The position numbers and the translations under genes were made by a program. The notes under the pieces are model-generated. The model searched no databases, had not been told where the DNA came from, and worked only from the letters and a program-made list of their open reading frames with translations. From Candidatus Heimdallarchaeota archaeon (GTDB taxonomy: Archaea; Asgardarchaeota; Heimdallarchaeia; JABLTI01), in assembly GCA_019056785.1 (NCBI GenBank), contig DXJV01000065.1, forward strand, positions 1 through 47,648: a stretch of 47,648 nt of DNA, read 5' to 3'. Of this stretch, positions 30,256-30,517 are shown piece by piece (within the stretch, counting starts at the first letter, position 1; each line of letters opens with the position of its first letter).

Positions 30256-30517
30256 TGTTGACCAAACTTTATCCTTTAGGCGCCACATTCTGGTGGCATT
30301 GGTTCTAAAATCCTCCTAAATGATAAAAGGTCAACAAGAGAATTTTTAGCCGGTTTTTAGGAGGTTCTTGATGATTTCTAAGAGGACAATAGGTTACAAA
30401 GCGACTTTCTCGCATCAAACAATTATAGTGAATTATGCTAACGAGAATCAACAGAAAAATGCTCTGAAAAGATCGGCTAAGAAGATGCAGAAACCCTTGC
30501 AACAAGGGTTTTGGAGG
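30256..30517 (+). promoter_or_regulatory. Structured 5' leader of trpB2 (putative RNA switch)
   Basis: Nested inverted repeats 30256-63/30329-36, 30268-73/30322-27, 30275-80/30315-20 and 30282-86/30293-97; alternative pairing 30312-20/30356-64; hairpin 30491-30511. Confidence 0.5.

Follow-up and report, generated by a model that had tools for sequence, protein, structure and literature searches.

Leader-peptide attenuation is a textbook form of gene regulation by coupled transcription and translation, and it is considered bacterial. In full-text literature searches, we came across no description of it from archaea. Here, we describe a candidate from an Asgard archaeon, located in a stretch of 47,648 nucleotides (nt) that was analysed as a whole and is referred to as the window (Candidatus Heimdallarchaeota archaeon, Asgardarchaeota/Heimdallarchaeia, assembly GCA_019056785.1, contig DXJV01000065.1, positions 1 to 47,648 of the forward strand). 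The element lies upstream of trpB2, which encodes a TrpB-like enzyme, and comprises a 17-codon open reading frame (ORF) with three Trp codons that is overlapped by mutually exclusive RNA helices. It is probably a ribosome-sensed tryptophan leader-peptide attenuator.

The Escherichia coli trpL leader (RF00513) has the same general design: a short ORF with Trp codons clustered near its end, upstream of Trp genes and overlapping exclusive helices, where the ribosome senses charged tRNA-Trp, as is proposed here. However, the two share no similarity of sequence or covariance model. The archaeal locus has three competing segments and trpL has four; its Trp codons are in the apical loop or in hairpin P4, between the strands, and not in 'segment 1'; its alternative helix would sequester a Shine-Dalgarno (SD) sequence, whereas trpL forms a classic GC-rich terminator; and it belongs to an archaeon, whose RNA polymerase and termination machinery differ from those of E. 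coli.

In Streptomyces, attenuators have been described upstream of the auxiliary trpS (trpS2) and leuS genes (PMC1262725), a Trp leader peptide for trpS2 being assumed by analogy with the trp operons treated in that paper. The resemblance is that a leader-type attenuator would precede a second, auxiliary paralog of tryptophanyl-tRNA synthetase (TrpRS), here TrpRS2 as opposed to the canonical TrpRS1. On the other hand, the Streptomyces devices are bacterial terminator/antiterminator hairpins, not homologous to ours, and the archaeal leader also appears as a duplicate before trpB2. In mycobacteria, leaderless short ORFs (sORFs) with poly-Cys codons unmask the SD of the next gene (bioRxiv 10.1101/834739). 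Common to both would be a translational output, sensing codons at the 3' end of a 5'-proximal, SD-less sORF, the adjacency of these codons to the SD-pairing sequence, and several loci co-regulated through the same codon. The mycobacterial Cys codons themselves pair with the SD and are masked directly by the stalled ribosome, whereas here the anti-SD lies 11-13 nt past the last Trp codon and the 5' strands of a rod-like fold compete as a third partner.

Two further systems are comparable in part. Translational attenuation of the ermC/cat type also uses stalling on a leader to re-pair helices and expose a sequestered SD, but it relies on drug-dependent arrest peptides in a four-segment layout and does not sense amino-acid supply. 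T-box RNAs (RF00230) likewise place aminoacyl-tRNA synthetase (aaRS) and amino-acid genes under the control of tRNA charging; they bind the tRNA directly and are large (Stem I, specifier loop, antiterminator bulge), an anatomy with no counterpart at this locus.

A conserved leader ORF with tryptophan codons

The features of the locus are as follows.

30217-30233, + strand: putative archaeal BRE (B recognition element)/TATA-like box, AAAGTTTATGTTAAA, assigned from its position about 25-35 nt upstream of the leader ATG
30255-30308, + strand: leader ORF of 17 codons plus TAA, peptide MLTKLYPLGATFWWHWF, read and translated (ATG at 30255, TAA at 30306-08)
30256-30280, + strand: segment A, the 5' strands of helices P1 (30256-63), P2 (30268-73) and P3 (30275-80), all within the leader ORF
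30282-30297, + strand: P4 hairpin, GCCAC (30282-86) with GTGGC (30293-97), the 3' strand being the first two Trp codons
30291-30302, + strand: putative regulatory Trp codons, TGG 30291-93, TGG 30294-96, (CAT), TGG 30300-02
30312-30336, + strand: segment B, the anti-SD CCUCCUAAA (30312-20) and the 3' strands of P3 (30315-20), P2 (30322-27) and P1 (30329-36)
30343-30357, + strand: two U5 runs (30343-47 and 30353-57) between rod and SD, a possible archaeal oligo-U termination signal (terminator role presumed)
30356-30364, + strand: segment C, UUUAGGAGG, SD of the ORF that follows, perfectly complementary to 30312-20 over 9 nt
30371-30553, + strand: spacer ORF of 60 codons, starting 6 nt past the SD and overlapping the trpB2 start by 29 nt, with no family match
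30525-31883, + strand: trpB2, a TrpB-like pyridoxal-phosphate enzyme, with a GTG start and its own GGAGG at 30514-18 (NF009057, 719 bits, cut-off 366; TIGR01415, 647 bits)

UGG makes up 3 of the 17 codons of the window leader and 2 of 16 in the leaders found before TrpRS genes (TrpRS type, see below), while Trp accounts for 1.1% of residues in the proteome of the window genome (1732 long ORFs). An earlier, sequence-only reading of the window had placed a junction of a riboswitch-like RNA in this region. The stretch that would form it (TGG..TGGTTCTAA) is the end of the short ORF 30255-30308 with its three Trp codons.

We compared the ORF in 19 distinct homologous leaders, including 13 distinct 16-codon leaders of the TrpRS type. 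The ATG is invariant and the frame is kept in all 19, and the other two frames are closed by internal stops in 18 and 14 of the sequences, respectively. The consensus of the 13 TrpRS leaders is M-x5-H-L-x-x-(T/A)-W-R-x-W-F-stop, with both TGG codons invariant; leaders of the trpB2 type end in ..F-W-W-(H/Y)-W-F.. or ..C-W-Q-W-F-F-F-T-S. Every intact leader contains Trp codons, one being missing in copy G000b (the second UGG) and both in the decayed copy of genome G010, where TGA and TTT are found. Only synonymous changes occur at Phe16 (TTC/TTT), Arg13 (CGT/CGC) and Leu8 (CTA/TTA), and the leaders are 16, 17, 18 or 20 codons long, the length differences being multiples of three. Because ATG, frame and Trp codons are kept, with synonymous-only changes and lengths varying in multiples of three, the sensor is most likely the translating ribosome.

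The relation between codons and RNA structure points in the same direction. The UGG site falls in the P4 loop in the TrpRS type and in the 3' strand of the P4 stem in the trpB2 type, and the persisting feature appears to be the in-frame Trp codon, not a structural position. The conserved unpaired stretch UGG-UUY-UAA reads Trp-Phe-stop, with synonymous change as its sole variation. In most copies the stop is 2-3 nt before a CCUCC motif. The last Trp codon is 11-13 nt before that motif; the stop position shifts by -6 nt in G000b, +3 in G005b and +12 in G009b.

When the homologues are aligned at the ATG, an A/T-rich TATA-like box is found about 30-45 nt before it in all of them, and its position predicts a 5' untranslated region (UTR) of about 5-12 nt. 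The public runs carrying the locus, as returned by a public run search, are DNA metagenomes only, from sediments and vents.

Two mutually exclusive RNA folds

In the window copy, a long nested stem (hereafter the rod) is formed by P1 (TGTTGACC, 30256-63, with GGTCAACA, 30329-36), P2 (TTTATC, 30268-73, with GATAAA, 30322-27) and P3 (TTTAGG, 30275-80, with CCTAAA, 30315-20), and it encloses the GCCAC/GTGGC hairpin. RNAfold of 30250-30340 returned exactly this structure at -27.5 kcal/mol, compared with -14.1 +/- 2.9 kcal/mol for dinucleotide shuffles (z -4.66; 0 of 200 shuffles as good). The alternative pairing is a perfect complementarity between CCTCCTAAA (30312-20) and TTTAGGAGG (30356-64), i.e. 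between anti-SD and SD. The anti-SD overlaps the 3' strand of P3 and begins 3 nt past the leader stop and 12 nt past the first base of the last Trp codon. As the segment 30312-20 is shared, the rod (A:B) and the anti-SD:SD helix (B:C) are mutually exclusive, and both are conserved.

These two pairings had been proposed in the sequence-only reading and were reproduced in full, the stem by folding and the 9-bp complementarity in the sequence itself. A third helix from that reading, 30343-58 with 30467-83, is present as a long-range helix of 16 bp in the minimum free energy structure of 30340-30570, a single-sequence prediction, and encloses the SD and the start of the spacer ORF. The SD had also been assigned to a downstream upstream-type ORF, and the 60-codon ORF 30371-30553 is indeed there; the mini-ORF further upstream, inside the fold, had been overlooked.

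Conservation and covariation of the structure in relatives were found in a 22-sequence alignment, whose consensus was set by hand (P1 core, an 8-bp P2/3, UCAUCUAG/CUAGAUGA, and P4). Rod positions pair in 85.9% of cases, compared with 29-51% when the partners are slid, and seven pairs are changed on both sides (covariation score 0.18 vs 0.098 shuffled, 0/500). In P4, one A-U pair becomes G-C in 8 of the 22 sequences and one U-A pair becomes A-U or C-G in 6; the former exchange combines a coding change (ACU to GCU) with an offsetting synonymous one (CGU to CGC). The strand is fixed as + by the G-U pairs. Over the 22 homologues, pairing in the anti-SD:SD helix amounts to 92.3%, as opposed to 47-64% in slid controls. 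Its variable position exchanges G-C, G-U and A-U, a compensating indel is present in genomes G004 and G005, and CCUCC(UAGA) just past the leader stop remains complementary to the downstream SD.

When the 5' UTR is part of the folded sequence, the rod is the dominant structure of the window copy; in leaders of the TrpRS type, the rod and the anti-SD:SD fold have nearly equal energies. A U-rich stretch, mostly a U4-U7 run, lies between rod and SD in all homologues. A further helix, P0 (GGUUGC/GCAAC), pairs the 5' UTR with the linker; it has support in the TrpRS-type and orphan copies but does not reach significance in that of the window. From the model-fitted alignment, RNAalifold recovered P2/3 alone, because the registers of P1 and P4 differ between subtypes. 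A sigma-70/terminator scan, which is unsuited to archaea and has no model of archaeal hairpin-dependent termination, flagged P4 only. No match to the Rfam Trp_leader family (RF00513) was obtained in the window at the gathering score or at E up to 10.

Distribution of the element and the genes behind it

In a BLAST search of the leader against genomes of the same genus, the match preceded a class-I synthetase gene by about 95 nt. Using a first covariance model built from five sequences, we identified 13 sites in 9 of the 11 genomes of this Heimdallarchaeota genus and none in 72 other genomes of the class. A degenerate pattern scan revealed further copies on sediment metagenome contigs. According to blastx, the gene behind the element encodes TrpRS at 17 loci and TrpB2 at three (the window, a near-identical contig and genome G009); two copies are orphans and one, in G010, is decayed and accompanies a TrpRS fragment. 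The link of the element to Trp genes is exclusive. In the window genome (G000) there are exactly two copies, the window one and G000:C47:100289-100419 before a TrpRS gene, a Trp gene as well, so that the element is not the dispersed repeat unrelated to trpB2 that would have refuted the sequence-only reading.

The synthetase behind the leader (P0001) is a TrpRS (TIGR00233, 208 bits, cut-off 177) that scores below equivalog cut-offs, and the window genome also has a canonical TrpRS (NF008927, 534 bits, cut-off 478) that lacks such a leader. For these two reasons the leader would govern an auxiliary paralog, TrpRS2. The canonical gene (G000:C100:13183-14172; L108:345-1520, minus strand) and the leader-bearing one (G000:C47:99172-100299; L031) encode proteins about 30% identical. 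All 8 genomes with TrpRS2 have the element; the two without it (G002 and G008, canonical TrpRS only) do not, and in G010 both the element and the gene are decayed. Only 2 of the 11 genomes (G000 and G009) contain TrpB2, both times with a leader.

Across the genus (11 genomes, 64-92% complete), no TrpA was found, and neither IGPS (indole-3-glycerol phosphate synthase) nor TrpB1 was found in the window genome. The genus thus appears to be a Trp auxotroph that could at most salvage indole. Apart from the housekeeping synthetase, the Trp-related genes that we found are limited to TrpRS2 and, where present, the indole-salvage enzyme TrpB2, and each of the two is leader-bearing. ARAGORN detected no tRNA genes in the window, and no tRNA-Trp was found in the 82%-complete draft of the window genome, even with an intron search. 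We also screened the whole genome for mini-ORFs rich in other amino acids ahead of genes, and no second convincing kind of leader emerged; the Phe- and Lys-rich hits were noise from AT-rich spacers.

With respect to the origin of the trpB2 leader, the first approximately 35 nt after the window SD resemble the 5' ends of TrpRS2 genes of relatives (score 32, shuffle maximum 30). This likeness suggests that the trpB2 leader was derived by duplication of a TrpRS2 leader. In G009, a different, non-homologous ORF of about 46-48 codons occupies the spacer position; the spacer architecture seems to be conserved and the spacer peptide not.

Two observations concern individual members of the family. First, the two orphan copies are trpB2-type leaders, G004:C156:3118-3252 (MFNLTTYLESTFWWHWF, then a stop) and G005:C61:229378-229511 (MFNLTIHLESTFWWYWFY, then a stop). 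Their rod and P0 are intact, their SD (GAAGA) and anti-SD are decayed, no gene follows on the same strand and a convergent peptidase gene faces them; both genomes are without TrpB2, and the copies look like relics of a lost trpB2. Second, in G006 (L024) no in-frame ATG, GTG or TTG exists between the leader-SD and the conserved N-terminus of TrpRS2. A conserved AUU in GGAGGUUUUUCAAAUUAC, 8 nt past GGAGG, is the likely start codon of this clade (L024 and L022/L023).

With a second covariance model, based on 22 sequences, we obtained no copy outside the genus, neither in the TrpRS loci of other Heimdall families (filters off) nor in 150 phylum-sampled genomes. Because of this result, the leaders of other Heimdall families appear not to be detectably homologous to the element.

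Conserved, non-homologous Trp mini-ORFs or motifs occur 100-270 nt upstream of TrpRS orthologues in other Heimdallarchaeia families (L070-L076 of genus g4, L082/L084, L078/L080 and L088-L092). Examples are MYQWQLSLVExHQH-stop (7 loci), MPYQW.. and MSDTLDW-stop/MKLILLDW-stop. In genus g7, a UUGGACUGG motif upstream of TrpRS is the 5' strand of a long-range helix, and one Trp codon is gone in L091, which makes an ORF reading doubtful in g7.

Proposed mechanism and alternative explanations

We propose that this genus of Asgard Trp auxotrophs uses bacterial-type attenuation to induce a spare TrpRS and TrpB2 when charged tRNA-Trp falls, a reading to which we assign a probability of about 0.5. It comprises a near-leaderless transcript, a toggle between rod and anti-SD:SD helix and, as a possible second layer, oligo-U termination. 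The transcript would start a few to some ten bases before the ATG at 30255 and first encode MLTKLYPLGATFWWHWF. The ribosome on this leader would be the sensor, waiting at the UGG codons of 30291-30302 when charged tRNA-Trp is scarce, and its position would select between the two exclusive folds. In the rod, the 5' strands within the ORF (30256-80) would pair with 30315-36, which frees the SD and buries the leader AUG; in the alternative, the anti-SD (30312-20) would pair with the SD (30356-64). Since the start of the leader itself is also shut in the rod, the fold is probably decided while the transcript is being made or shortly afterwards.

The choice of fold would set the access of ribosomes to the SD of the 60-codon spacer ORF, and this would carry over to TrpB2 across the 29-nt overlap, by translational coupling or polarity. 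Transcription termination at the U-runs (30343-57) may form an additional layer. The same device, presumably in its older form, would control the auxiliary TrpRS paralog in the window genome and across the genus. Given a leader peptide, induction by starvation is clearly preferred over the opposite sign, because both precedents and physiology predict induction on Trp limitation; to our knowledge, starvation is the inducing condition wherever an amino-acid leader precedes a cognate aaRS or biosynthetic gene. Stalling at the Trp codons is favoured as the key event because the stop position varies and the Trp codons do not, and because the last of them lies 11-13 nt before CCUCC.

Several points weigh against this proposal. 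The leader ORF has no clear SD, and its predicted 5' UTR is very short (about 10 nt). The SD that would be controlled in the window is that of a non-conserved spacer ORF, which makes the link to TrpB2 indirect. Codon conservation (CAU CUA GA, CGU/CGC) is partly demanded by the helices, so that coding and structure are confounded, and all copies come from one genus and are not independent sequences. We know of no established hairpin-assisted termination by archaeal RNA polymerase. Finally, when RNA was folded with the ribosome footprint masked, a ribosome at the first Trp codon left the SD paired (unpaired probability 0.00 in 10 of 14 leaders) and an open SD required a ribosome at the last Trp codon or at the stop, the non-canonical sign, although this model, if pairs may enclose the ribosome, closes physically impossible helices and does not settle the sign of regulation.

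This last result speaks for the alternative that ranks next, which keeps the leader peptide and reverses the logic: ample Trp-tRNA or free Trp would turn the genes ON. On reaching the stop codon, a ribosome would melt or mask the anti-SD (30312-20) and open the SD, after which the mRNA would lock into the rod; a stall at the first Trp codons would keep the anti-SD:SD helix (OFF). A variant is a TnaC-like, Trp-dependent arrest at the stop. The paired SD at the first-Trp stall (10/14) and the SD being most open with the ribosome at the stop agree with it, as do the placement of the stop 2-3 nt ahead of CCUCC in most copies and the conservation of the peptide tail W-R-D-W-F at the amino-acid level. 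However, the shifts of the stop (-6, +3 and +12 nt), unlike the constancy of the Trp codons, argue against a mechanism based on the position of termination, and shutting off a Trp-forming enzyme and a spare TrpRS under Trp shortage makes little sense in a Trp auxotroph. Together with the starvation response of amino-acid leaders of cognate genes mentioned above, these points make the reversed sign unlikely, if still worth considering.

The sequence-only reading had suggested a Trp-, indole- or tRNA-responsive switch. Its description as a Trp-linked cis-acting leader with exclusive helices is borne out, and the leader is conserved; its ligand- or tRNA-binding riboswitch is not supported. A metabolite riboswitch (for Trp, indole or serine/phosphoserine), with the P1-P4 rod as aptamer, the anti-SD:SD helix as expression platform and the ORF fortuitous, would fit the layout of translational riboswitches, the very stable and covarying fold and the association with two different Trp genes, as is typical of riboswitch regulons. 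But no Rfam class matched: no family reached its gathering score in the window and only chance-level matches appeared at E up to 10. Apart from UGG-UUY-UAA, whose variation is purely synonymous, no unpaired stretch is strongly conserved. The P4 loop and UGG position differ between types while the Trp codons stay in frame, indels preserve the reading frame, and the ATG never varies. With its single small hairpin, such a rod would also offer little ligand pocket. We regard this explanation as improbable.

Still less probable is a minimal T-box-like or kissing-loop sensor of uncharged tRNA-Trp, in which UUGG of the P4 loop would contact CCAA of the anticodon loop and UGGU the ACCA 3' end. A Trp T-box would be expected to show two UGG motifs, all TrpRS-type P4 loops read UUGGC, and the conserved UUGGACUGG motif stands upstream of TrpRS in other Heimdall families. 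Nevertheless, RF00230 gave no match in the window at any threshold up to E 10, no Stem I or specifier anatomy was found, and the UGG motifs are 3-6 nt apart, too close for both ends of a tRNA by established tRNA geometry. In addition, the trpB2-type loops (AUUCUG, UUUCUG, AAUGC) lack UUGG, and G000b lacks the second UGG.

A structure that senses nothing, with an idle ORF (a stabilising 5' hairpin, a terminator, or a protein operator through TrpRS autoregulation or a TRAP-like factor, after the trp RNA-binding attenuation protein), hardly comes into consideration: U-runs do follow the rod and two orphan copies persist without a downstream gene, but it leaves the in-frame Trp codons, the ATG and the conserved anti-SD unexplained, the loops contain no CCA-anticodon mimic, TRAP (PF02081) was not found in the window genome, and TrpRS autoregulation would not account for the trpB2 copies.

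If the proposed Trp-starvation attenuator is real, then, taken with the Trp mini-ORFs of other Heimdall families, codon-sensing leaders may constitute a general level of regulation, so far undescribed, among the archaea related to eukaryotes. In an Asgard lineage, a Trp leader that is conserved and covaries would be a concrete and mutable test object. It bears on archaeal initiation on very short 5' UTRs, on the sensing of tRNA charging in cis, and on whether transcription-translation coupling in Asgard archaea is tight enough for co-transcriptional decisions. It would also mark TrpRS2 and TrpB2 as a starvation regulon, provide an example of a leader copied between genes, and bear on how Trp auxotrophs in sediments handle scarce Trp and indole.

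Additional observations

On metagenome contig Ga0209976_10005370 (L055), two leader-plus-TrpRS2 units (3843-3973 and 6705-6835) lie about 2.9 kb apart and differ in leader peptide (MFTLTIHLEVTWRDWF and MVNLFNHLDFTWRNWF), a tandem duplication of the whole regulated unit. For the copy behind 6705-6835, the TrpRS match spans residues 6-129 only, within the blastx window.

The contig DATKZI010000043.1 (G009:C43; L038) is deposited as 'Candidatus Bathyarchaeia archaeon'. Its genome is placed in the same genus and has a leader with TrpRS2, and the label of the record is probably wrong.

A tRNA gene with an encoded CCA end (anticodon CAG, Leu, read by eye) is located on the minus strand of L031 at about 1790-1880, approximately 150 nt upstream of the promoter of the TrpRS2 leader of the window genome.

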